From: a phage
Strand: one strand, 5' to 3'
DNA: 64,000 nt
Sequence record: PZ168832.1
This document shows positions 2,549 to 54,407 of this stretch, piece by piece (position 1 is the stretch's first letter; each line of letters starts with the position of its first letter). A model generated the notes under the pieces. It made no database searches, had not been told where the DNA came from, and worked only from the letters and a program-made list of their open reading frames with translations. Position numbers and translations under genes: made by a program.

Positions 2549-3733
2549 TTAACGCGCTTTCAAATCACGGTACACGGTCAGATTCTTCTTAGCACGGGTG
2601 ATAGCGGTGTACATCATCTTGGAGTACGGAACGCCGCGCAGGATTTCTTCCAGCACGCACACGTTGTCCCACTCGCTGCCTTGCGATTTGTGGACCGTGA
2701 TTACATAGCCATAGTCCATCCCGCCAACAGCGCGTTGAGCCTCTTTGCGCACTTCCTGATCAGTAGAGAAGGAAAGAGGATTAATCTTAACCTTTATATC
2801 TTTGCCATCGGTAAGCGAGCGCAAATTGACATACATGATTTCATTGGACTCGTCTTCGTCCCTTTCAAAGTCCGGCACTGGCTCATAGCTAATAACAATC
2901 CCTTGCTCGCCATTACAGAATCCTGGGCCGTGTTGGTTGAAGGTGCAAATAACCTTCTCGCCGATTCCTGGCATTGGCGTTATACGTCCGCTCACTTGCC
3001 GTAATAATGAATTCCATTTGTCTTTGGTGCTATTATAGGAGCAAATAATTTGATCATCTTCGCCCATGAATTTCTTCAATGCAGTAACGCGCGGCGATTC
3101 TGCCAACACTTTGACGTCATCATATTCACGCGGAGGAAGGCGGTTGCCTTGGCGCACGAAGAAGGAGGCGCGGATAATGTTGGACTCTTTCCCTTGCCGC
3201 ATGATTTCTGTTAACAGTACGTCAACGGCTTCTTCGGTAAAGTAGGCGGCGGCTTTTACCGGAGGGACTTGTCCAATGTCGCCTAATGCCAGGACAGGGA
3301 TGCGGTGATCAAGAAGGCGCTCTGTGTCCCACTCGCCAACCATCGACGCTTCATCGAGTACAACAAGGTGCGGCCTTTCATCCAGCTTTGACTTTCTCGA
3401 AAAGATTGGCTCATTGTCGTCATTTACGCCGCGCACGTTATAGATGAACTGGTGAAGGGTCTTAGCGCCACGACAGCCTTTTTGCTTTAATCGGCTTGCA
3501 GCCTTTCCGGTCGGCGCAATATAGATAGCGCCGTACTCACCGACACAGCGGCGCACAATCTCGCGAGCAATAGAGGTTTTACCAGTCCCTGCATAGCCAG
3601 CGATGAAAAACACGCGCTTCGTCGTTTTACCGTCCTGCAATCGCTTGTACCATGCAACGGCTTTCTCGATGGCGTCGATTTGTTGCGCGTTAAACTGAAT
3701 CACTGGCTCATCATTAAATTCTGGAATGTTCAT
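2549..3733 (-). CDS. Dda/RecD-like SF1 DNA helicase
   Basis: Walker A GYAGTGKTS, Walker B VVLDEASMV, C-terminal ITVHKSQGSEWDNV. GGAG SD. Confidence 0.85.
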   Translation of the reverse strand: MNIPEFNDEPVIQFNAQQIDAIEKAVAWYKRLQDGKTTKRVFFIAGYAGTGKTSIAREIVRRCVGEYGAIYIAPTGKAASRLKQKGCRGAKTLHQFIYNVRGVNDDNEPIFSRKSKLDERPHLVVLDEASMVGEWDTERLLDHRIPVLALGDIGQVPPVKAAAYFTEEAVDVLLTEIMRQGKESNIIRASFFVRQGNRLPPREYDDVKVLAESPRVTALKKFMGEDDQIICSYNSTKDKWNSLLRQVSGRITPMPGIGEKVICTFNQHGPGFCNGEQGIVISYEPVPDFERDEDESNEIMYVNLRSLTDGKDIKVKINPLSFSTDQEVRKEAQRAVGGMDYGYVITVHKSQGSEWDNVCVLEEILRGVPYSKMMYTAITRAKKNLTVYRDLKAR

Positions 3734-4059
3734 TATAACTCCACTACGCTTTCAAGGTCCAGATATACTGGAATAAAATGGCAATCTTCTTTTCGTTCAA
3801 ACATCTCACCATCAACATGGCTGAAGAAAACAGTTGTGTTTGGTATCTTCCATCCTTTCTCGTCGCGCACTAAGTACGCCATGGATTCAACAGGGATGTA
3901 CAGCGATACCGGATTCGCGGCAAAAATAAATTTGATTCTGTCTGGTTGACCCAGGAATCGCATGATTGTTAGGCTTGAATTCAATCTTGTATTAAGGAAG
4001 GACTCAACGATTCCGACGTGTGTTGCACGCTCGCGTTGCTTCGTCTCTTTTTCGTTCAT
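3733..4059 (-). CDS. hypothetical protein
   Basis: 108-aa ORF. Its stop overlaps the helicase start, suggesting coupled translation. Confidence 0.55.
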   Translation of the reverse strand: MNEKETKQRERATHVGIVESFLNTRLNSSLTIMRFLGQPDRIKFIFAANPVSLYIPVESMAYLVRDEKGWKIPNTTVFFSHVDGEMFERKEDCHFIPVYLDLESVVEL

Positions 4060-4162
4060 TTCAGGCGACCTTTGTTAGTGCGGAAATATTTTTTGATAGT
4101 ATAATTGCAGATATAGTATAAAGCAAAGTAAATCGAAATTGTGAACTAAATGGTAAATATTG

Positions 4163-4190
4163 TTGACTTTGTATCACTCAATATTATACT
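4163..4190 (+). promoter_or_regulatory. sigma70-like promoter for the rightward replication/early block
   Basis: TTGACT (4163-4168), 16 nt spacer, TATACT (4185-4190). Lies 30 nt upstream of ATG 4220 in a divergent intergenic region. Confidence 0.6.
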
Positions 4191-4219
4191 GCAGGTATTG
4201 ATTACCGAAGGAAAGAAAG

Positions 4220-5302
4220 ATGGCTAGTTTAAGAGAAGAAGCAAAAATAATTGAAGAGTTTTTAACAGAACTCCAAAGAGGCATCCCAGAAGATGAGCGC
4301 GTCATGACGGTGTTTGCTCCTGAAGCAACGGTACAGACCGACGAGCGCGGCAAGAAGATCAACAGCAGCTTCTGGCCTAAGCCTTGGAAGTTGGGCAAGC
4401 CGCTCATGCAGCACCAAAACGGCTATGCGTGCATCAGTTCAATGCGTAAGTCTCCCAACCCAAAGACGGGTGAGATGCGATACTGGCGTACAGAGTCGGC
4501 CTTTGGTCACGGTATGGCGATGATGGTCGACGACATCGGCCACGGTAAAGGGTCCAAAGGCGATTTAGATTTGGAATTCTTTTTCGAGCGACTGAAGCCG
4601 ACTGTCATTGTCGAGACGTCACCGAACAACCACCAGCTTTGGTACTTCTTTAAAGAGCCGATTGACCATCTTATTCAGTTCAAAGCATTCCTTGGGTCTT
4701 TCGTAAACATGGTACTCAAGAAGGGCGGCGACAATACGATTAAAGACGTGACGCGCGTGGGCCGTGTTCCTGGGTGCATCAACAACAAGCGTGTGACTCA
4801 CGACGGCCCCTATAAATATGTCGATGAGAACGGCGACCCGTTCCGCTGCCGACTTGTCCATGCAGACTACTCCTTGCGCTACACCATCGAAGACATCTGT
4901 CAGGCATTTGGCTTTCACGTCGTTATGTCGCAAAAGCGTGAGATTCAAATTGACGTCGATGAATACAAGTACGATGCTGTTTGGTATAAAATAGCCCAGC
5001 AGATTCTAGCGCGCAACAAAATGGGTGAAGGGTCTGATGGCGACGTCATCGAGAACATGTCAGGCAAGTGCCGCATAATCTGTCCTTGGGGTGAAGAACA
5101 CACCAACGGCGACCCGTATGGCGCTTATTTTCGCGGCCCCATCCCTGGTGCTGAACATGAATTCGTTTTCGGTTGCGCTCACGACTGTCACCGGAAAGGG
5201 GAAGGCAAGAAAGGTTGGACCGCTTTTGTTGAAGCAGTAGTCATGCCTTATATTGAGAATCAACTTGATATGATAAATCGTCGCGCAGGTGGCATAAAAT
5301 AG
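4220..5302 (+). CDS. archaeo-eukaryotic-primase (AEP) type primase-polymerase
   Basis: Motifs MMVDDIGHG (DxD), SPNNHQLWYFF and GRVPGCINNK match the AEP/prim-pol pattern. C-terminal Cys/His cluster CRIICPWGEEH...GCAHDCH. Confidence 0.7.
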   Translation: MASLREEAKIIEEFLTELQRGIPEDERVMTVFAPEATVQTDERGKKINSSFWPKPWKLGKPLMQHQNGYACISSMRKSPNPKTGEMRYWRTESAFGHGMAMMVDDIGHGKGSKGDLDLEFFFERLKPTVIVETSPNNHQLWYFFKEPIDHLIQFKAFLGSFVNMVLKKGGDNTIKDVTRVGRVPGCINNKRVTHDGPYKYVDENGDPFRCRLVHADYSLRYTIEDICQAFGFHVVMSQKREIQIDVDEYKYDAVWYKIAQQILARNKMGEGSDGDVIENMSGKCRIICPWGEEHTNGDPYGAYFRGPIPGAEHEFVFGCAHDCHRKGEGKKGWTAFVEAVVMPYIENQLDMINRRAGGIK

Positions 5303-5360: not shown

Positions 5361-5507
5361 ATGCAAAGCGAAGAATTGAACATCGAGGTTGAATGTCTGT
5401 TAAAGTCGTTAGAACATAAACCAGTAGAGCTTCCGACCCTTCAAGGAGTCATGGCTCACCATCAAGCGGCTGCGGCCAAACACTACTCTGAATTTGTTAA
5501 GGAATAA
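5361..5507 (+). CDS. hypothetical small protein (48 aa)
   Basis: Below the ORF-track cutoff. GAGGTG SD. MQSEELNIEVECLLKSLEH...; fills the gap before 5510. Confidence 0.45.
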   Translation: MQSEELNIEVECLLKSLEHKPVELPTLQGVMAHHQAAAAKHYSEFVKE

Positions 5508-5509
5508 AA

Positions 5510-5800
5510 ATGAACGAACCAAAAATGATGACCGTTGAAGAAGCGCAAAAGCTTCGTGTTGAAAACGAGCTTAAGCTTGTCAACCAGATTCTCCCCTTGT
5601 TTGCAGGCTACGCAGTGGAGGAAGTTGTTGGGGCAATCCTTAACGTATCCACACATGTCGCTATGAATCTTCAGGCCGAACGATTCAATACGCTGCTGAC
5701 TATTAAAAACCTTACGGTCAGTGCAACGTTCACCGTTGAGCCAGTCAATTTTGACGAAGCTGCAGCCGCGATTCAACAACAGCGAGATCAAGAGGTGTAG
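5510..5800 (+). CDS. hypothetical protein
   Basis: 96-aa ORF with AAGGAA SD. Confidence 0.55.
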   Translation: MNEPKMMTVEEAQKLRVENELKLVNQILPLFAGYAVEEVVGAILNVSTHVAMNLQAERFNTLLTIKNLTVSATFTVEPVNFDEAAAAIQQQRDQEV

Positions 5801-5801
5801 C

Positions 5802-6065
5802 ATGGGTGCTTTCCGTAACGAGTTCACCTGGAACGTTACCAGAAATCTCTCGACTTGTCCTAACTGTGCAAGCGATGTTATCAAGGTGCGGCAGCATCGC
5901 AACGCGGAGGAAGGTGCCTGGGAAGATGGCGACCTTGTAGAGTGCCAGTGCTGCTCTCATGAAGGCGTTGTGGAGCTTTACGCTGGCGAAGGTTGCCCAC
6001 CAGCAGAGCGCACAGCACGCGTTGAATGGGATGCAACAGACTCCATTGGTGATCCTCAACAGTAA
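5802..6065 (+). CDS. hypothetical Cys-rich (zinc-ribbon-like) protein
   Basis: Internal ATG of ORF 5721-6065 with AGAGGTG SD. CPNC...CQCC pairs. Confidence 0.55.
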   Translation: MGAFRNEFTWNVTRNLSTCPNCASDVIKVRQHRNAEEGAWEDGDLVECQCCSHEGVVELYAGEGCPPAERTARVEWDATDSIGDPQQ

Positions 6066-6083: not shown

Positions 6084-6188
6084 ATGAAAGCCGTAAAGAA
6101 ATACACATTAATCATTTCCCTTGTCATCATCCTGGGGCTATTATATGTATTGGATATGGCATATTATTTGGCAGGGGTGAGTGGATGA
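6084..6188 (+). CDS. hypothetical small membrane protein (34 aa)
   Basis: MKAVKKYTLIISLVIILGLLYVLDMAYYLAGVSG. ATGA overlap with the next gene; weak SD. Confidence 0.4.
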   Translation: MKAVKKYTLIISLVIILGLLYVLDMAYYLAGVSG

Positions 6189-6475
6189 ATATTGTAATTC
6201 TTTATGGTGAAAATATCAGCGATGACGACATCGAAGTTGCCGTTGATGTTTACGGTATCGATGAGGTGAAACGTGTTGAAGAAATTAGTGGCGCAAATCT
6301 CAATGAGATTGTCAAAGAAGCTGGCTGCCCTTCGGAAGAGATTCTGGTGGTTACTAACGATGACCTGTCTTCTATGGATCATTTGCGCCGCATCTTCACC
6401 GATTGCCAATACCTTCATGCTGTTCAATCAGTAAACAAATTGAGAAAGGCATACGCCAACCAATTTCCTTGCTGA
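6185..6475 (+). CDS. hypothetical protein
   Basis: 96-aa ORF with GGGGTGAG SD. Confidence 0.55.
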   Translation: MNIVILYGENISDDDIEVAVDVYGIDEVKRVEEISGANLNEIVKEAGCPSEEILVVTNDDLSSMDHLRRIFTDCQYLHAVQSVNKLRKAYANQFPC

Positions 6476-6611: not shown

Positions 6612-8282
6612 ATGTCAATTGAACATGACAATCTTCCAGAGGATACAGGTGATGAATTTGGTGCAATCTTTGACGAAATTCAAGACGCTGGTGTTTCAGA
6701 AGAAATGCAAGCAGCAGAGCAGCAAGGCACCAGAGCTAAAATAAGCCTTCAGCACAAGGCTGTTGAGAAAGATGCAGAGCGCATGGAATGCTACGGTGAA
6801 GAAGACTTGGTTGAAAGGGCACGTTTGCTCGCCTCACTTCAGGTAATCAAGTTCCCTCACTATAAACCGACGAAAGATGATTTTGTTCTTCAGGCGGACC
6901 GGACGAGTGACATGAACCGTTATGCGGTTTTCGACGCGTTGTTTGATAAGGGAAGCGGCGTTGTTCCATTCCCTCACAAAGATACTTTTCGTGGGCGCTT
7001 AGTCGACCATCGCGGCGAAACATTCACCGACCGGACGTTGGAAGTCACAGAGATAGTTGCCGCTGTCGACGCAGCAGGCCTGTCCAACCCAAACTCACGG
7101 CAGGTCGCTCAATCCTATAAGGAATGGGCCATGCGTTATCAGCGCGACGACCTGATGGACTTCTTCTACAAGAAGCTGCCTGAATGGGACGGTACTGCGC
7201 GCATTGAGAAATACCTTATCGAGCTATTCCGACCGTTCGATACAGAGTTAAACCGACAAATCGGTGTGTATTTTTGGCTATCGCTCTATAACCGCCTGAC
7301 CAACCCTGGCTGTCAAGCGCCAATATCCATTGCGCTCATCGGCGGCCAGAACGCAGGGAAGAGTTATTTTAGTAAGCTGCTTTGCGAAGCTATTATGAAC
7401 GACCGCCACGCAACACCGATTCCGTTGAACTTGGCCGCGCAAAACTTCAACCCGTTCTTGCGAGCTATTACGGGTCGCTCAATTATCGCGAACGTTGGCG
7501 AGATGACAGGCTTTAAAAAGGCCGACATCGAAAACATGAAAGCATTCCTGACTAAGACGGAAGATGACCTGGACTTCAAATTTGAAGACACGCAGGTTAA
7601 ACCACGCCAGTGGATTGCGATCATGGACGGCAACGAATACGCAGGCATGCAGCGTGACGACACGGGCAACCGTCGTGTTTACCCTATCTTTGTTGGCCAA
7701 CTTGCTGACAAGGACGGGCAACCGAACTGGTCTAAAGACTTCCAAGCTGACCTTTCCACTTTGAAAGAAGATGTTTGGCAGCTTATGGCTGAGTGCGCTG
7801 CGTGGATGGAGAAGCACGGCGAAGCAGGTTACAACGCCTTTGTTGGTGAAACGTCTCGTATGCTTACTGAGTTCAGCAAGAATGAAATGGAACGCGCTCG
7901 CGGCGTTATCCGTGATGAGATGGTCGACAACGACCTTGTTGAAGTCGTCATTACTGCGCCTTATGACCGACATCACAGCGGACGCTGGCACATCACCAGT
8001 GGTGCAATCGCTATGGGATTCAGAGCTAAGTGCGGCAAGTCGCCTTTCTCACGTACCCTTGCGCCGCACATGTCGAAACTTGGATTTGAGCCTGCAACCT
8101 ATCGCAACCAGCGTGGTTACTTTACGCCGCTGATTAAGAATGAAGCAGGGGAATACATTTCTGACTTGATGACTATCTTGGCGTATCTTATCCGCGACGA
8201 GTCTGACCCTGAAGATATTGAATTCTTGAAGAAGGTTATTGAACGCAAACGTTCTTTAGGAAGAGATAAGGATGAATTCTGA
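6612..8282 (+). CDS. VirE/D5-type primase-associated P-loop NTPase (putative replicative helicase)
   Basis: 556 aa. Walker A LIGGQNAGKSYFSKLL. Sits downstream of the AEP primase. AGGAGG SD. Confidence 0.75.
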   Translation: MSIEHDNLPEDTGDEFGAIFDEIQDAGVSEEMQAAEQQGTRAKISLQHKAVEKDAERMECYGEEDLVERARLLASLQVIKFPHYKPTKDDFVLQADRTSDMNRYAVFDALFDKGSGVVPFPHKDTFRGRLVDHRGETFTDRTLEVTEIVAAVDAAGLSNPNSRQVAQSYKEWAMRYQRDDLMDFFYKKLPEWDGTARIEKYLIELFRPFDTELNRQIGVYFWLSLYNRLTNPGCQAPISIALIGGQNAGKSYFSKLLCEAIMNDRHATPIPLNLAAQNFNPFLRAITGRSIIANVGEMTGFKKADIENMKAFLTKTEDDLDFKFEDTQVKPRQWIAIMDGNEYAGMQRDDTGNRRVYPIFVGQLADKDGQPNWSKDFQADLSTLKEDVWQLMAECAAWMEKHGEAGYNAFVGETSRMLTEFSKNEMERARGVIRDEMVDNDLVEVVITAPYDRHHSGRWHITSGAIAMGFRAKCGKSPFSRTLAPHMSKLGFEPATYRNQRGYFTPLIKNEAGEYISDLMTILAYLIRDESDPEDIEFLKKVIERKRSLGRDKDEF

Positions 8283-8929
8283 TGAATAAAGCAATCAACA
8301 TCGCTAAATTCTTTCAAAATCTCGGTGAACTGAACAAAGAGAGTGACGTTCACGGAGAAGAAATGAACCGGATGATTTCAACCGTGTTGCGTGGTTTTGG
8401 GTACGATAAGGACTCCATCAACTGTAAGCGCACGAAGCTTGTCGATGAGACATACCTTTACTACGTTGAATTGCGCGTAGGGAAAGAGTTGATGATCATC
8501 GACCCTAAATTGGAAGGGGCGCACTGTTTTGGCGCTCACCCTCGTGCGAGTGAATTCAAGGGTCGCGGTCGCAACCGACTCCAGAAGCTTGATGATGCAG
8601 GCGACTTGAACATCTCGATGTTCCTCAAAGAGTTCCTTGCGCTGCCGAAGGTTGCATCCTCAACGGGCCGTGATGACCTGTGCAAGATTGGATTCAGAAC
8701 TAAAGATTTGCGCAATGCGCTACGCAAGAAGGGATTTGTACCTTCTTATGATAACGTCGCCGCGCTGATGGCTTCCATGGAGGAAGCTGAAGCAATGGAT
8801 AAAGTGCGCGGCTATTTCCTGAATACAGGCTACACAATGTATGAGTGGCACACCAAAGGATTGACTGTCGCCGACTTCATCTATTCATTAGAGCAGAAGT
8901 ATGTACGCAATATGCAGGCCACAGGATAA
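8282..8929 (+). CDS. hypothetical protein
   Basis: 215-aa ORF. TGATG overlap with the upstream stop. Confidence 0.6.
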   Translation: MNKAINIAKFFQNLGELNKESDVHGEEMNRMISTVLRGFGYDKDSINCKRTKLVDETYLYYVELRVGKELMIIDPKLEGAHCFGAHPRASEFKGRGRNRLQKLDDAGDLNISMFLKEFLALPKVASSTGRDDLCKIGFRTKDLRNALRKKGFVPSYDNVAALMASMEEAEAMDKVRGYFLNTGYTMYEWHTKGLTVADFIYSLEQKYVRNMQATG

Positions 8930-15797: not shown

Positions 15798-16500
15798 TAT
15801 ACGTATTTATGACAGTTTAATCCACTAAATAATACGGATAGAACAGTGAGGAAAATACAGCGGTGTATTTTAGTGTAAATATTGAATCAAAAATAAATAA
15901 TTATGGTGCTATTATATACGCAGATTGTTTGTAATTTATAGGATATTTTATCGTGGAGTATTGGCTAACGGTGCGTTAGCCGTGGGTCTTGGTGCTTGTG
16001 GTGTTGATGCTCAGAATTTTAATAATGTTTTAGTTTTAGTAATCGTAGTCAATGATGATACGTATAAGAAAATGAGAGTCACCCCTTCACAGGATATTGT
16101 ACCGTGGCCCTGTGGTGCGCCGCGCCTGGGATTGCTGGTATACACTGGTGCTATTTTGCCGCGAAGGCAGTCATTCATACGTATCATGACGTATCATTGG
16201 GCTATTGATTTATAAGGAAAAATACGCTGATACGGATGATACGGGTGCAAACATAATATATATAGAATTCCAGAAAATTAATTAACTCCATTTTGAATTA
16301 ATTTAAATTAATTTTTTTCTACATCCTCATACTTATACTAAACTTATATTTATACGTATCATCCGTAAGATATAAGTAAAAACAAAGACTTGCGGCAATA
16401 CGGATGATACGTCATGATACGCTTCAACCAGCCATCTGCGGCTAAGTCATTGATTTGCATAACAAGCGGCGAAAGGGATGGATTTCTTTTATACGTATCA
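15798..16500. repeat. iteron cluster A: CGTATCATCCGTA / ACGGATGATACG units in both orientations around an AT-rich core (about 16250-16350)
   Basis: Units read at 15798, 15832, 16052, 16178-16197, 16229-16243, 16352-16367, 16398-16422 and 16491. The core contains GAATTC...AAATTAATT...TTTTTTT. Confidence 0.8.
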
Positions 16501-16586
16501 AACAGTACACCACGCACCACGGTCCGCAATCCACGCAGCATTATGATTTGTGTACATTTATAGCCATAATGAACATCAATCTGCAC

Positions 16587-16615
16587 TTGAATATAATGTC
16601 CATCCATTGTATAAT
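16587..16615 (+). promoter_or_regulatory. sigma70-like promoter upstream of terS
   Basis: TTGAAT (16587-16592), 17 nt spacer, TATAAT (16610-16615). Confidence 0.6.
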
Positions 16616-16650
16616 TCACACTATTAATTTGCACTATGGGATTTTGCACT

Positions 16651-17124
16651 ATGAGTCAAGACTATGTAGCGATGCCTGAAGACTTTGAAGACCCGCGATT
16701 TGCAGAGCACAATCAGGCTTTATTCGATGAGTTCATTGACCTTGTTATTCAGGGCCATGACATGCGCGCAGCTTTTGCACTAGTATTTGGAATGGAAGTT
16801 GCAACGGATAACTACACTGGACAGCGAATCCTTTGCGCGCAACGCAACCCATACTACAAAATGCGCTTCAAAAAGCGTATGGAAGAGATGCCACTCAAGG
16901 ATTTGTGGAGCGTAAAAGGTGCAATTCACAATTTGGTTAAGCTTGTGCGTGATCCAGAAGTCGCGGCGTCAGCCAAGCTTAATGCTATTCGCGAACTGAA
17001 TATCATCTACGGCATCACGATGATTGATGAAAACGGCAATAGTAAAATGGGCCGTTCCATGGACGATTTCTACAAGGATTTTGGAGAGGCAGCCAAAGAA
17101 GGCGAGCAATTCTCCCGCCACTAG
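16651..17124 (+). CDS. terS: terminase small subunit-like protein
   Basis: 157 aa. The segment PEVAASAKLNAIRELNIIYGI resembles the conserved helix of small terminases. N-terminal helical region. The ORF-track ATG 16636 lies inside the motif doublet and ATG 16651 is preferred. Assignment is by resemblance only. Confidence 0.5.
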   Translation: MSQDYVAMPEDFEDPRFAEHNQALFDEFIDLVIQGHDMRAAFALVFGMEVATDNYTGQRILCAQRNPYYKMRFKKRMEEMPLKDLWSVKGAIHNLVKLVRDPEVAASAKLNAIRELNIIYGITMIDENGNSKMGRSMDDFYKDFGEAAKEGEQFSRH

Positions 17125-17143
17125 CCAATTTGCACTATAAAAC

Positions 17144-17177
17144 GGCCCTAGAACACATCTTCTCCACTTCTAGGGCC
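17144..17177 (-). terminator. 10-bp perfect hairpin; likely terminator of the leftward island operon (and possibly of terS)
   Basis: GGCCCTAGAA-14 nt-TTCTAGGGCC. On the minus strand it is followed by GTTTTATAG. There is no U-run on the plus side. Confidence 0.55.
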
Positions 17178-17238
17178 GTCGGTAATACGACGGGGAAGGT
17201 TGCAACCGTAAACGCGTTAGAAAGTGTATTATTATAAG

Positions 17239-17502
17239 TCATCTTTTAGTCACCTTACGTAACAATTTACGACCTTCAGCCGTCCAATCGAACGACTCCA
17301 CCAGCAGATTCGCACTATAACCTAAGATGATGCGCCCTTTCTCGTTATCGACCCGCCAACAAGTCTCGAATAGCATTCGATTTGCACTATTAACTATCGC
17401 CGCAACGCGCGTAGGGTAAACGCAATTTGCACTATGGTCATAAAGGGATAAGGTGCGACCACTTCCGATGGACAACGTAGCGATGAGAATGAGCGTATTC
17501 AT
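17239..17502 (-). CDS. hypothetical protein with a signal-peptide-like N-terminus
   Basis: 87 aa with GGTGG SD. MNTLILIATLSIGSG.... Contains three in-frame copies of the reverse-complemented 12-mer (HSAN, NSAN, YSAN). Confidence 0.45.
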   Translation of the reverse strand: MNTLILIATLSIGSGRTLSLYDHSANCVYPTRVAAIVNSANRMLFETCWRVDNEKGRIILGYSANLLVESFDWTAEGRKLLRKVTKR

Positions 17503-17552
17503 AAGCCACCAATTTGCACTATGAAAAGCGACCCCGAAGGGCCGCCATTCGA

Positions 17553-18179
17553 TTAGATAATCTGGAAGGTGTAGGACTTGTTGCCGAACTCGAAGTTCAA
17601 GCGCCCAGCTTCCTTAAGCTTCATGCGGAAGCGAATATGTTTGCTATCCGGTAAGCCCAGCGCGGCGAACGCTACGCGGACCGATTTGAACTCTCCTACA
17701 CCCTCGACCATAACGCCGTTACGGGTAAGACGCTTTTGCGCCACTTCCTTATTATCCCAACTTTTTGCAATGCCTTCGCTATTCGAACGGCGATGGGAAG
17801 GAGTTCCGTTTTGCACTACGCAATTTGCACTATCGTTTAAACCGCTCTTAACGAAGGCTTCATACTCTTCGTCGGTCATCGCGTCGAGTTCTTCCTGCGT
17901 CGGCTCGGCCTTTTTAACGACCGCACGCGCCTTATGCGTTTTTACATCGCTGGACACTTCCTCGCGCGGCTTCGCGTCGGGGATGGGCGATTCGTTGGAC
18001 GGCTCATCGAGCGCGTTTAAGGACTCGATTAACGCGATTACGCGAGTCTCGGCGGTCCGGCGGTCCGAAAACTTCTTAATCGGTTTTGAGCCGGAATTTG
18101 CATTATAGAATGCAACGAGGTCGGCGGTCTTAGTTGCGATAACGTCGCCGCTAGTCGAGAAGCGATTTAAGCTAACCAT
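17553..18179 (-). CDS. hypothetical protein (possible DNA-binding protein of the island)
   Basis: 208 aa with AGGAG SD. Has a protein-like composition, an acidic/Pro-rich linker and a basic C-terminal domain (KRLTRNGV...SVRVAFAALGLPDSKHIRFRMKLK). Confidence 0.6.
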   Translation of the reverse strand: MVSLNRFSTSGDVIATKTADLVAFYNANSGSKPIKKFSDRRTAETRVIALIESLNALDEPSNESPIPDAKPREEVSSDVKTHKARAVVKKAEPTQEELDAMTDEEYEAFVKSGLNDSANCVVQNGTPSHRRSNSEGIAKSWDNKEVAQKRLTRNGVMVEGVGEFKSVRVAFAALGLPDSKHIRFRMKLKEAGRLNFEFGNKSYTFQII

Positions 18180-18259
18180 AATAAACTCCTATTTGTTAGG
18201 GCGCTAGGCGCGAAAGAATTTTATTAAAGCGCCGCGCACGACGCTCTAAAAATCCTCTC

Positions 18260-18544
18260 TTACGCTTCGACGAGGGAGAAGGTTTCAAATTCTTCTTCTC
18301 CCATAACGAGTAAAATATTCCCGATTTCGACCGCTTCGAAGAAGTATCCGTTAACGTTTACTTCGAATGATTCGCGGTCCGATTCCGGTAACGCCGCGTA
18401 AAGTTTAAAAGCCTCGGCGACCGTTACCCCACCCGCTTCAATAGTTTGATCTACGTTCGCGGCGTAGACTTCGGATAAATTTTGTTTTACGCCGTAGTTC
18501 TCGACGATAGCGTTACGGATAGAAGAAACGTTAAGAATAGCCAT
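18260..18544 (-). CDS. acidic small protein, island paralogue A1
   Basis: 94 aa with AGGAG SD. Paralogous to 19176-19466 (EVYAANVDQTIE / SVYLSNVDATIE; VNVNGYFFEAVEIG / VTINGFVYTITEIG). Confidence 0.6.
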   Translation of the reverse strand: MAILNVSSIRNAIVENYGVKQNLSEVYAANVDQTIEAGGVTVAEAFKLYAALPESDRESFEVNVNGYFFEAVEIGNILLVMGEEEFETFSLVEA

Positions 18545-18559
18545 TTTAAACTCCTAGTT

Positions 18560-18596
18560 GGGATAGGCGTTAACGACCTATTCGTTAACTCATCCC
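18560..18596 (-). other. conserved structured 5' leader (copy for A1)
   Basis: On the transcript: outer stem GGGAT/ATCCC and inner stem GTTAACGA/TCGTTAAC with loop ATAGG, just upstream of ACTAGGAG. Confidence 0.5.
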
Positions 18597-18612
18597 GTCC
18601 CGATATGAGTAC

Positions 18613-18640
18613 ATTATAATATAGTGTAGAAAAAAGTAAA
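18613..18640 (-). promoter_or_regulatory. island promoter P-L1
   Basis: TTTACT, 16 nt spacer containing TTTCTACACT, then TATAAT (minus strand). Confidence 0.6.
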
Positions 18641-18684
18641 GCACTTTTTCGATAAAAATGCGATAAATTATTTTATCTTTTTTC

Positions 18685-18712
18685 TTTACTTCTTCGTACA
18701 CTCGCGTATACT
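18685..18712 (+). promoter_or_regulatory. island promoter P-L2
   Basis: TTTACT, 16 nt spacer containing TTCGTACACT, then TATACT. Followed by GTTTATATCGAGACGGG, which is shared with the other copies. Confidence 0.6.
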
Positions 18713-18767
18713 TGTTTATATCGAGACGGGCGATGGCCTTTCTTCTACTAGCATCGGGAGCTTTATT

Positions 18768-19070
18768 ATGACTACTTTGATCTCTTCCATCCTTACTTAC
18801 GACGAAGACCGCTTAACCGTTCGCTCTCTTATCGCCGCCGTTAACGCGGAACTAGAATCTAGCGCCATTAAGGTCCGCGCGGTCGCCTTCATCGGCCTTT
18901 CCTTCGACGATATGAAGTACGCCGAACGTAGCGCCATCCGCTTCACGAAGACCGACGACGAAGCCGTTACCCTTATCGAGACGGTTACGCCGCGCGACGA
19001 AGCGTTAATTATCATCGAGTATATCGATATAGAAGGTGATAAAGCTTATAAATATTTTATCGCAAAATAA
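18768..19070 (+). CDS. acidic small protein, island gene B (possible distant paralogue of A1/A2)
   Basis: 100 aa with GGGAG SD. N-terminus MTTLISSI resembles MITLSAI and MAILNVSSI. Confidence 0.6.
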   Translation: MTTLISSILTYDEDRLTVRSLIAAVNAELESSAIKVRAVAFIGLSFDDMKYAERSAIRFTKTDDEAVTLIETVTPRDEALIIIEYIDIEGDKAYKYFIAK

Positions 19071-19081
19071 CGAAAAATTGC

Positions 19082-19110
19082 TTTACTTATTCGTACACTA
19101 AGACTATAAT
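19082..19110 (+). promoter_or_regulatory. island promoter P-L3
   Basis: TTTACT, 17 nt spacer containing TTCGTACACT, then TATAAT. Confidence 0.6.
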
Positions 19111-19121
19111 GTTTATATCGA

Positions 19122-19154
19122 GAGGGATGAGGAAGCGAATAGGTCGCTACCCTC
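19122..19154 (+). other. conserved structured 5' leader (copy for A2)
   Basis: Outer stem GAGGG/CCCTC and inner stem (A)GCGA/TCGC(T) with the same loop ATAGG, upstream of ACTAGGAG. Confidence 0.5.
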
Positions 19155-19175
19155 CCGACTAACTAGGAGAATATT

Positions 19176-19466
19176 ATGATTACTTTATCCGCTATCCGCG
19201 CCGCTCGCGTCGAAACTTCCGAAAACTCTAATGTATTTGGCGAAACCTTAGAGAGCGTTTATCTCTCTAACGTAGACGCGACTATCGAGTCTATTTATGA
19301 ACCGATCAACTTCCTCGACCTTTACAAGTATCGCGACGAGGACGTAGCATCCTACCGCGTAACGATTAACGGCTTCGTCTATACGATTACCGAAATCGGC
19401 GGCGAATATCTCGCGATCCCGCAACTCGGCGGAGAAGTGACTTATTTTAAAATCGTAAGCCTTTAA
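19176..19466 (+). CDS. acidic small protein, island paralogue A2
   Basis: 96 aa with AGGAG SD. Paralogue of 18260-18544. Confidence 0.6.
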   Translation: MITLSAIRAARVETSENSNVFGETLESVYLSNVDATIESIYEPINFLDLYKYRDEDVASYRVTINGFVYTITEIGGEYLAIPQLGGEVTYFKIVSL

Positions 19467-19477
19467 GGAGAAGAAAA

Positions 19478-19687
19478 ATGACTAATATGAATAACTCTCT
19501 TAACGCGCGCGCCCATCGTACCGCCGTCATCGATATGTTCCGCGAACTTAAGGAATTATGCGATAATATGAACGCGATGTTATCCATCGGCGGCTGGGGA
19601 TACGAAGAAGAGGTTAAATACGCGGTTATGCGTCGTAAGCGCGATAACGTCCTGGGACAAATTAAACGCGCCGGATTATTCCTTTAA
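19478..19687 (+). CDS. hypothetical small protein, island gene C
   Basis: 69 aa with AAGGAG SD. Confidence 0.55.
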   Translation: MTNMNNSLNARAHRTAVIDMFRELKELCDNMNAMLSIGGWGYEEEVKYAVMRRKRDNVLGQIKRAGLFL

Positions 19688-19713
19688 TTATAATTACCCA
19701 CCGTTACTAATAG

Positions 19714-19738
19714 GCCGCGCTTAGTCGCGGCTTTTCTT
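19714..19738 (+). terminator. rho-independent terminator of the rightward island operon
   Basis: GCCGCG-CTTAGT-CGCGGC followed by TTTTCTT. Confidence 0.7.
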
Positions 19739-19857
19739 CGTCCCTATTTCGATGCGCTTCTCCGCGAAAACTCCTTTATCCTTCCCTTCGTCGTCGCATA
19801 ATCTTCTTCGAGATGCTCCTTAGTTCGCATAACAGGTATTACGTTAAATGGAGAACA

Positions 19858-19931
19858 TCGCGTAAGTCCTTGTTTTATATAGACACCTATATCGGACCGT
19901 TAGGGCGGGTCGCGTAAGTCGTTGTTTTATA
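19858..19931 (+). repeat. two 22-bp direct repeats TCGCGTAAGTC(C/G)TTGTTTTATA
   Basis: Copies at 19858-19879 and 19910-19931, 52 bp apart, in non-coding DNA. Confidence 0.8.
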
Positions 19932-20056
19932 AAGGCGCAAAACTTTCCCTTCGTTCCGAACTAAAACGAGGAATATGCCGACCCTTCGTCCGAAAATAGT
20001 ACGCATGCGAAATTACATGCATCTAGAATAATCCCCACCGATATTATCCTACACGC

Positions 20057-20119
20057 AATCATTCGCTTTCGAATCATTATGCTTCATATTGTTATGCGTC
20101 AAATCATTCGCTTTCGAAT
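20057..20119 (+). repeat. two 18-bp direct repeats AATCATTCGCTTTCGAAT
   Basis: Copies at 20057-20074 and 20102-20119. Each contains the dyad ATTCG-CTTT-CGAAT. Confidence 0.8.
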
Positions 20120-20332
20120 TGTAACGCTGGAAACTGTAACGGCTATTGATTATTGCGTTCGTGTGGTTTTTATGGCATGGGTCTTTTGGTGCGTTTTGGT
20201 ACTTGATGGAATTTGCGGTACACTAATCAAAATACGACACATTTGGTCCACTAACTTTTCAAAGAAAAAGTCCCAGACAGTACCGTACTATTTTGTACCC
20301 ACAGTAAATTTGCAGTACACTCCTGCGCGGCA

Positions 20333-53640: not shown

Positions 53641-53868
53641 TTTCACGGCTTCAACCTGGACTGGCGGCGCGGAACTTGTATCAATGTCTGGCAAGTCGAA
53701 GTAATACCCCGCCATGCCAATCACGCCAACAATCGCGGCCCGTGCCACCTTGTTGCTAATTGACTCCCCAATAAGCTTTACCAACAGGGACAAGATTTGA
53801 GACGTCAAAGCCTTTTTCAGCCTTTTGTTTTCTTCCAAATCTTTCTGCATAACTACCACCCATGTCAA
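53638..53868 (-). CDS. hypothetical single-TM protein
   Basis: 76 aa. TM segment AAIVGVIGMAGYYF. Overlaps the upstream stop. Confidence 0.45.
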   Translation of the reverse strand: MTWVVVMQKDLEENKRLKKALTSQILSLLVKLIGESISNKVARAAIVGVIGMAGYYFDLPDIDTSSAPPVQVEAVK

Positions 53869-54407
53869 CGCACATCCTGTGTCTTAACATTACCTGAAGC
53901 ATCTCTTAAGGGCAGTGGATAGTAGGCCATTTGGTAGTCTGATACGCCTTCAACATGATAAAACACGATTACGTCTTTGCTGTTGATGAGCATGTTAACG
54001 ACATCTGATTTATCTTCTGGAGTGAGTATGAGTGCGCCGCCTGTCCTGCTGTCTACTGCAACAGGGTATGTCTTGTCGACAAGGCCGCTGTCCAATGTAT
54101 TATACCTGACAACGATTTCAGCGGCATCAACTTTTGCAATTGACATTCCGAACACAAACGACACGACTTGGCGACCGCGATCATTCATTACGCACATCTT
54201 TTCCTTATCAAACCTTTCCTTTATCACATCATATTTGTTCCAGCAAAATTCGAACGATTGGCCGTTGTTAAAATATCTCGTTAACACTTTGGCATTACTA
54301 TTTGGCGGCGTAAACATACTTTCAGCCGCTGCACTTTTGGTGAAGAACAAGACTGTCAGCATAGCCATGATGGTGATCAAAACAATCTTTAAAGTTTTCG
54401 ATTTCAT
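53865..54407 (-). CDS. secreted hypothetical protein
   Basis: 180 aa. Signal peptide MKSKTLKIVLITIMAMLTVLFFTKSAAA. AAGGTG SD. Confidence 0.55.
   Translation of the reverse strand: MKSKTLKIVLITIMAMLTVLFFTKSAAAESMFTPPNSNAKVLTRYFNNGQSFEFCWNKYDVIKERFDKEKMCVMNDRGRQVVSFVFGMSIAKVDAAEIVVRYNTLDSGLVDKTYPVAVDSRTGGALILTPEDKSDVVNMLINSKDVIVFYHVEGVSDYQMAYYPLPLRDASGNVKTQDVR

Follow-up and report, generated by a model that had tools for sequence, protein, structure and literature searches.

A co-oriented 12-base word in the left half of the Wifcevirus direct terminal repeat: a candidate direction-dependent signal of the genome end

Why should a short DNA word recur about ten times, always on the same strand, across a region in which the genes themselves change strand? 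The question is raised by the window analysed here, a stretch of 64,000 nucleotides of phage DNA (sequence record PZ168832.1) that constitutes a near-complete Wifcevirus genome, that is, an E. coli myovirus of about 68 kb, with 96% identity to ManiWeber/Bas99. An earlier inspection made from the letters alone (hereafter the sequence-only reading) had pointed to a one-directional array around terS, the gene for the small terminase subunit, and had listed several possible roles for it. As described below, about ten same-strand copies of the 12-base word RATYYGCACTAY occupy the left half of a 3.9-kb direct terminal repeat (DTR). The array is most likely a direction-dependent, cis-acting signal of the left end of the linear genome that is not tied to a transcription unit. 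More tentatively, and with less than even confidence, we favour its being a polar signal for end processing or for the start of replication, read from the left genome end.

Reading the sequence and searching the window places all ten copies of the sequence-only reading where it had put them, with the offsets of 15 and 14 bp in its two doublets and the strands of the underlying genes as it had given them. The list was incomplete, as it had missed one good copy within terS and a degenerate one at the terS promoter (Table 1). Its three weaker relatives, at 16452, 20210 and 20307, all lack the invariant core GCACTA and are not counted here; the latter two lie outside the terminal repeat, and that at 20210 is part of a different conserved element. 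Every copy in the window is on the plus strand, with none on the other. The 9-mer TTTGCACTA occurs nine times, always on the plus strand and between 16628 and 17824; the remainder of the 64 kb has no occurrence on either strand, in agreement with the sequence-only reading, which had noticed no copy elsewhere. The claim that the copy number is far beyond chance is upheld by shuffled controls; TYGCACTAY has nine matches as compared to 1.81 +/- 1.15 in dinucleotide-preserving shuffles, and none of 100 shuffles reaches nine. Outside the terminal repeat the motif is present at chance level, and depletion of the word in the rest of the genome is not significant against a third-order Markov expectation. 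The successive copies are spaced by 13, 15, 131, 355, 180, 72, 45, 87, 297, 14 and 273 bp, and no helical phasing is apparent from these spacings.

Table 1. Coordinates of the motif copies and associated features in the window
Feature	Coordinates	Strand	Remarks
Degenerate copy AATTCACACTAT	16613-16624	+	overlaps predicted terS -10 element; invariant in 13 Wifcevirus genomes; not listed in the sequence-only reading
Copy AATTTGCACTAT	16626-16637	+	terS leader
Copy ATTTTGCACTAT	16641-16652	+	overlaps terS ATG (16651)
Copy CTTTTGCACTAG	16772-16783	+	within terS; invariant in 13 Wifcevirus genomes; not listed in the sequence-only reading
Copy AATTTGCACTAT	17127-17138	+	intergenic; just 5' of a bidirectional terminator hairpin
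Copy GATTCGCACTAT	17307-17318	+	inside 87-amino-acid minus-strand gene; given in the sequence-only reading at 17307/8 as (G)ATTCGCACTAT
Copy GATTTGCACTAT	17379-17390	+	inside 87-amino-acid minus-strand gene
Copy AATTTGCACTAT	17424-17435	+	inside 87-amino-acid minus-strand gene
Copy AATTTGCACTAT	17511-17522	+	intergenic; adjoins terminator of 208-amino-acid gene
Copy GTTTTGCACTAC	17808-17819	+	inside 208-amino-acid minus-strand gene; absent from ECML-117 clade
Copy AATTTGCACTAT	17822-17833	+	inside 208-amino-acid minus-strand gene; absent from ECML-117 clade
Variant copy AATTTGCATTAT, core GCATTA	18095-18106	+	in 208-amino-acid gene; least conserved copy
Direct terminal repeat (DTR), 3897 bp	16290-20186		record starts and ends; PhageTerm-defined DTR of phage Mansfield
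terS (small terminase subunit)	16651-17124	+	family profile matches PDB 7UXE 'Small terminase' (10 chains), E = 4e-73; Mansfield annotation
Chi-like word CCACTAGC	17118-17125		directly 5' of the copy at 17127
Sole canonical Chi in the DTR	17298-17305	-	CCACCAGC on the plus strand, equal to GCTGGTGG on the minus strand; in the active orientation for RecBCD entry at the left end; abuts the copy at 17307
Short repeats CGTATCAT / ATACGGATGATACG (also TATACGTATCA), inverted arrangement	16054-16500		dyad centre at the left DTR end, 16290; outside the array
RepB-family DNA primase, candidate trans-acting reader	4220-5302	+	Pfam PF16793 RepB_primase, E = 5.5e-36

The position of the array relative to the genome ends is fixed by related records. 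Five independent records (Mansfield, WFH, WFC, SP13 and Ro157lw) begin at window position 16290/16291, and position 20186 is where the WFH record stops as well as where the PhageTerm-defined DTR annotated in Mansfield ends; the DTR is therefore placed at 16290-20186. The whole array lies inside it, from +323 to +1816 and hence in its left half, while the right half, which carries early sigma-70-like promoters and small genes, contains no motif copies.

The same arrangement is found in seven lineages, namely Wifcevirus, the Pantoea phages Kyle and PA1 (both Kylevirus), and four new lineages, L155 to L158, which came from the protein database and Logan contigs. In the first ~2 kb of these seven lineages YYGCACTA occurs 69 times on the terS strand and not once on the opposite strand. 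The word RATYYGCACTAY is unchanged across lineages in which TerS is only 41-68% identical to that of the window: the motif is present in 12-13 copies in Kylevirus (TerS 41-43% identical, 7-9 Chi sites), in 9-10 copies in L155 (68%, no Chi), in nine in L156 (51%, six Chi), in six in L157 (47%, two Chi) and in ten in L158 (54%, five Chi). Although Kylevirus and the window can hardly be aligned elsewhere at the DNA level, the array is in the same place and on the terS strand. A matrix built from 74 copies reads R-A-T-Y-Y-G-C-A-C-T-A-Y, which on the minus strand is RTAGTGCRRATY. For the 69 copies from the seven lineages the information content is confined to 12 positions, from -5 to +6, and no second conserved element is seen within +/-40 nt of the motif.

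Conservation is also visible at close range. Among 13 Wifcevirus genomes, the first eight core copies contain 4 variable columns out of 80, as compared to 118 of 890 in their flanks (p = 0.03). The clade of ECML-117, RCIP0319 and Eco4M-7 lacks the three copies in the 208-amino-acid gene, so that the copy number within Wifcevirus ranges from 8 to 11. Between Kyle and PA1, which are 61% identical in the region, half of the motif copies (6 of 12) are at orthologous columns and the rest are lineage-specific, with the total kept at 12-13. Thus number, zone and orientation are conserved, and exact position and spacing are not.

With regard to the missing copies, part of the 208-amino-acid gene (17553-18179) is present in ECML-117, RCIP0319 and vB_Eco4M-7 as a divergent allele without the copies at 17808, 17822 and 18095, which suggests recombinational exchange within the DTR. 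The same gene is overlapped on the plus strand by an antisense open reading frame of 176 amino acids (17578-18108), whose frame is also open in Kyle and TropicalSun as judged from tblastn matches; this frame is probably a compositional shadow.

Searches beyond these lineages returned little else. Metagenome and IMG/VR protein-guided scans for further lineages yielded only Wifcevirus, Kyle and Myosmarvirus-like loci. In two IMG/VR scans for motif pairs, which returned more than 200 loci, the multi-copy cases outside the clade were all coding tandem repeats, with periods of 9, 12, 22 or 24/42 bp or with gaps in multiples of three. A site for a widespread host factor, shared by unrelated phages, is rejected on this basis. 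A literature search for the word itself returned primers only, and the array is not described in the searched literature that mentions Wifcevirus.

What kind of element is conserved in this way? The copies are found in intergenic DNA, in plus-strand terS (in two frames) and in minus-strand genes, where they occupy both stop-free frames and avoid the one that would read TAG. Their spread over intergenic DNA and over sense and antisense coding frames argues that selection acts on the DNA and not on a peptide. The sequence-only reading had considered that the copies might be phage-specific promoter cores, by analogy with T7 and SP6, and would thus serve an RNA polymerase or sigma factor of the phage. 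GCACTAT resembles the CACTATAG core of the T7, SP6 and K11 promoters. Such promoters are bipartite elements, or elements of at least about 19 bp, with fixed spacing, co-orientation with the genes they serve and a cognate polymerase or sigma factor. In the present array conservation is limited to 12 nt, and as there is no second conserved element within 40 nt, the copies are not promoters. In addition, six copies are inside minus-strand genes, and 7 of 12 either point against minus-strand genes or lie within them, the copy at 17127 is followed immediately by a bidirectional terminator, and the annotation of the near-identical phage Mansfield includes neither an RNA polymerase nor a sigma factor. 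The information profile, the gene orientation and the annotation lead us to reject the analogy, and we regard this role as extremely improbable.

The possibility that the copies are sites for a protein that binds double-stranded DNA requires more consideration. In one form, this was proposed as an operator or centromere-like array for the 208-amino-acid protein encoded within the DTR. This is unlikely, since homologues of both the 208- and the 87-amino-acid proteins are present in motif-less Pbunavirus, Myosmarvirus and XcP1; the two are ruled out as binders on these grounds, as is the 69-amino-acid DTR 'regulator', which is absent from Kyle. Iterons and a partition centromere, which consist of regularly phased (about 11 or 22 bp), non-coding repeats accompanied by a Rep or ParB/ParR gene, are likewise set aside, given the irregular spacing, the mostly coding location of the copies and the lack of an annotated Rep or Par gene. 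Another phage protein could still use the copies as operator, silencer or roadblock sites over the left repeat, and so shut off terS or early genes, or protect the end. In keeping with this, copies are located at +1 to +40 of the predicted terS promoter, and small proteins of unknown function that are limited to motif-bearing genera are available as binders, with lengths of 96 (6185-6475), 215 (8282-8929), 180 (53865-54407) and 108 amino acids (3733-4059). Phylogenetic profiling for a reader returned only five or six such small proteins of unknown function, all confounded by phylogeny. None of the candidates has a recognisable DNA-binding domain, and the word does not co-vary with them although they are only 30-47% identical between genera. 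Simple operator binding needs no strict co-orientation at irregular spacing, and most copies are in coding sequence far from promoters. With the 208-, 87- and 69-amino-acid DTR proteins excluded by their distribution, we consider this explanation unlikely.

The strict strand specificity (69 to 0) and the defined, non-palindromic word of ~12 nt would also be expected of sites for strand-specific nicking of the T5, tf or phiKMV type, or of starts for nick-primed replication or recombination. The nick sites of T5, tf and phiKMV have a consensus of similar length and lie on one strand only. Those systems, however, scatter their sites genome-wide, whereas all copies here fall within 1.5 kb, and a nickase, HNH or HUH gene cannot be recognised among the annotated genes. 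We give nicking a slightly lower standing still than a double-stranded DNA binder. Several further resemblances, to Tus-Ter, DnaA boxes, the T4 MotA box, the sigma-54 -12 element, IHF and H-NS sites and the RSF1010 oriT nick region, were dropped because the match to each consensus is too poor.

Strict polarity, irregular spacing, turnover of individual sites and confinement to one end are hallmarks of signals that are read by a factor tracking along DNA from a fixed point of entry, and it is this combination that points to a polar end-processing signal. A known signal with these properties, Chi, is found in the same zone. Where Chi sites are present near the left end they occur 45 to 0 in one orientation, across ten lineages. 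Chi must be on the strand that has its 3' end at the entry point (PMC12315714), and by this rule the observed orientation is the one active for RecBCD entering the left, terS-proximal genome end. Motif and Chi are interleaved in five lineages (Kyle, PA1, L156, L157 and L158). Wifcevirus and L155 have the motif with 0-1 Chi, and Myosmarvirus-like phages have Chi without the motif in the equivalent place. In Kyle, nine Chi sites at 255-1979 (contig L008) are interspersed with the 12-mer, and the PA1 cluster is at 3648-5220 (L005). The Erwinia phage TropicalSun, a Myosmarvirus, has five CCACCAGC at 5487-5999 (L007), that is, 5 of its 6 Chi sites, with one elsewhere in 68 kb, and two further Myosmarvirus-like contigs (L139 and L140) have four each in the same orientation. 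The Chi sites turn over much as the motif does; 6 of 9 are at orthologous columns in Kyle and PA1, and in one aligned column a Chi site in Kyle is a motif copy in PA1. We found no paper describing the Chi clusters of the virulent Kylevirus and Myosmarvirus-like phages.

The motif is not itself Chi, as its sequence differs (RTAGTGCRRATY vs GCTGGTGG), while its oriented clustering toward the entering end, 69 to 0 within ~2 kb of the left end, is that of Chi. Oriented terminal Chi clusters that support phage growth via recombination have been described in P1 and the lambdoid phage LLS (PMC12315714). The clusters of P1, LLS and Pseudomonas phage MD8 resemble the present array in that a short asymmetric word is present in many co-oriented copies near one genome end, at positions that are not fixed (PMC12315714); they differ from it in that the word here is RATYYGCACTAY, of 12 nt and not 8, and persists where Chi has been lost. 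Judged from the genomes and contigs compared, the 12-mer shares zone, polarity and evolutionary behaviour with Chi and persists where Chi has decayed. Its persistence in Wifcevirus and its sister lineage L155, where Chi is almost gone, suggests that in Wifcevirus the word probably acts independently of RecBCD.

A mechanism for the polar end-processing or replication-start signal has to accommodate the location, orientation and invariance of the word, the turnover of its sites and its co-occurrence with Chi. After infection, the left genome end would be entered and unwound from the terminus, by RecBCD in the Chi-bearing relatives. Over its first ~2 kb, the surviving 3'-ended (minus) strand would then repeatedly expose 5'-RTAGTGCRRATY-3', a word that a conserved factor would read in one direction only. 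Its action would limit the loss of the end and start DNA synthesis or recombination inward, and the intact right half of the repeat would supply homology to the other repeat copy for the formation of circles or concatemers. Within the same model the factor could be a primase, or the word could attenuate a helicase-nuclease in a Chi-like manner.

The concrete reader that we favour is the RepB-family primase of the phage, which may recognise the word by analogy with plasmid systems. The primase is among the most conserved proteins, with 71% identity in Kyle and 59% in TropicalSun. RSF1010 RepB' primes only at the strand-specific sites ssiA and ssiB, where synthesis begins within a GTG (PMC8567376). 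A GTG is also present in the motif when it is read on the minus strand. The ssi sites of this IncQ plasmid and the present word are thus alike in being strand- and sequence-specific and in the presence of GTG and of a RepB-family primase, which is encoded here. With regard to neighbouring genes, an open reading frame of 96 amino acids at 6185-6475 (+), between the primase and a VapE-like helicase, is found in the phage collection only in 32 Wifcevirus and Kylevirus records, which is the motif-bearing set.

A number of points weigh against this interpretation. The ssi sites extend over ~40 nt, of which nt 7-27 form a hairpin, with a GTG 3' of the hairpin as the start (PMC8567376), and there is one per strand, whereas here about ten words are found on one strand, with 12 nt conserved and no conserved hairpin. 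An array of this kind is missing from TropicalSun and Pbunavirus, even though homologues of the primase, TerS and DTR-region proteins are present there. The protein of 96 amino acids has no PDB or Pfam match and an AlphaFold2 pLDDT of 58, and its label in Mansfield, 'RepB'-like', is uncertain. We know of no response of RecBCD to RATYYGCACTAY. Chi and the motif may share a zone merely because both functions need to be close to the left end, and the left end may not be the one that enters first. Finally, copies are located between the terS promoter and the terS ATG in the window and in L155-L158, which would fit an operator or a packaging role; in the window the promoter itself is supported, with TTGAAT-17-TATAAT at 16587-16615 containing the -10 element (16610-16615) of the sequence-only reading.

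A packaging role is the principal alternative to a polar end-processing or replication-start signal, and although we hold it to be the less probable of the two, it is a serious possibility. As proposed in the sequence-only reading, the array would be a TerS recognition or pac region. In this pac- or cosB-like version, the decameric TerS would bind the directly repeated words rightward of the left cut, set the packaging direction and autoregulate terS; in another, the translocating terminase motor would read the words, in the manner of cosQ, on moving into the terminal repeat as packaging is completed. The location is suitable, as the array begins at the terS leader and ATG, surrounds terS and has its first copies 323-362 bp from the left DTR end. 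The homologous TerS of E217 (Pbunavirus; PDB 7UXE) is a ring decamer with N-terminal helix-turn-helix motifs (PMC9611059), which invites comparison with the ~10 copies here, and the TerS sites of lambda, SPP1 and P22 adjoin or lie inside terS (PMC9611059). The lambda cosB R-sites, SPP1 pacL/pacR and P22 pac are similarly repeated short words that adjoin terS or fall within it, at a distance of a few hundred bp from the cut, and cosQ, a polar termination signal, is similarly orientation-dependent. Motif-bearing lineages also share TerS residues that are missing in motif-less ones, for example [QKR]R-N-P-Y-Y for E-S-N-P-Y-Y, and TerL is the most conserved protein, at 75% identity to Kyle.

Several observations are difficult to reconcile with TerS as the reader. 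The word is invariant while TerS drops to 41-46% identity, so that the two do not co-vary, and relatives with homologous TerS, namely Myosmarvirus-like phages, Pa193 and PCSE1, have no comparable array. The span of 1.5 kb, the irregular 13-355 bp spacing and the turnover of sites are unlike known pac or cosB; as compared to the TerS sites of lambda, SPP1 and P22, the array is also entirely co-oriented, with an invariant word. In Kyle, terS is not preceded by any copy. The TerS residues in common could equally reflect shared ancestry, and E217 TerS shows no appreciable DNA binding in vitro (PMC9611059). The proposal of a TerS site is thus strengthened by the proximity of the array to the cut and to terS, and weakened by the diverging TerS, the array-less relatives, the span and spacing, and the existence of other repeats at the cut itself.

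The left DTR end is at the centre of these other repeats, which change with lineage, as would be more natural for a terminase site. In the window they are CGTATCAT and ATACGGATGATACG in inverted arrangement (Table 1). Kyle has the same inverted architecture made from a different word, AGAATATCCGAA, centred on the Kyle DTR start. L155 has TGATACGT four times, with CGTATCAT-type repeats common to Wifcevirus and L155, and in Salmonella phage PCSE1 terS is preceded by AATATCG / ATATAACGG repeats. By their placement, the left-end inverted repeats probably form the structure that terminase recognises for the left cut, and are better candidates for this than the array. At the right DTR end, direct repeats of AATCATTnnCTTTCGAA and TGTAACG are located just inside the boundary (window 20057-20137; Kyle L008 3419-3591), and an element AATTTnnnGTACACTAATCAnAAT is found exactly 24 bp beyond it in both Wifcevirus and Kylevirus (20210-20233; Kyle L008 3627-3648). 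The boundary elements at left and right would be more natural terminase signals than the array.

The long DTR also brings to mind control of DNA entry, either by a T5-like stop to first-step transfer or by handles for a motor that pulls in the first-entering end. The DTR with its early sigma-70-type promoters and small genes is comparable to the terminal repeats of T5 and SPO1, and the polarity of the array is defined relative to one end. A homologue of T5 A1/A2 was not seen, and the array is in the left half and not at the inner repeat boundary, where a stop would be expected. We know of no entry machinery that reads DNA sequence, and consider this role very unlikely. T5-like phages share with the present genome a long DTR with early genes, repeated short elements and strand-specific features; they differ in that T5 nicks are genome-wide and the T5 repeat clusters are non-coding and of mixed orientation, and no sequence or gene homology is seen here.

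In the right half of the repeat, the segments 18613-18712 and 19082-19110 contain three strong sigma-70-like promoters (TTTACT-N16/17-TATAAT or TATACT). They sit within an inverted repeat, 85% complementary, at 18622-18654 / 19068-19100, and drive divergent small genes. By analogy with the T5 and SPO1 terminal repeats, this promoter-bearing half looks like an early or host-takeover module.

The array is a real, conserved and experimentally tractable feature. Oriented terminal Chi clusters in P1 and lambdoid phages were already known; what is new here is a different word, in virulent DTR myoviruses. In its boldest form, which we regard as doubtful though worth stating, the proposal is that RATYYGCACTAY represents a polar regulatory DNA word not recognised before. 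It would be a second 'Chi-like' or priming signal, read in one direction on the strand that the entering end exposes, and would act alongside Chi in Kylevirus-like phages and replace it in the E. coli Wifceviruses. Its reader would be a host or phage enzyme without such a known specificity, for which the candidates are a RepB-family primase working at unwound ends and a helicase-nuclease distinct from the canonical RecBCD-Chi system.

End protection, replication and recombination in phages with long DTRs are poorly understood outside T7 and T5. For these phages an orientation-locked, conserved word provides a concrete cis-element with a small set of candidate readers, which is testable by recoding, and engineered E. 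coli K-12 supports the growth of four available Wifcevirus isolates, Bas98-101 (PMC11990801). The Chi clusters in the Kylevirus and Myosmarvirus-like DTRs extend the idea of 'Chi-dependent phage growth' from temperate lambdoid and P1-like phages to virulent myoviruses. If the array is bound by TerS, a recognition sequence would for the first time be defined for an E217-type decameric small terminase. If it is a primase or nuclease signal, it would add to the very short list of direction-dependent DNA signals, which includes Chi, KOPS, Ter, cosQ and ops.

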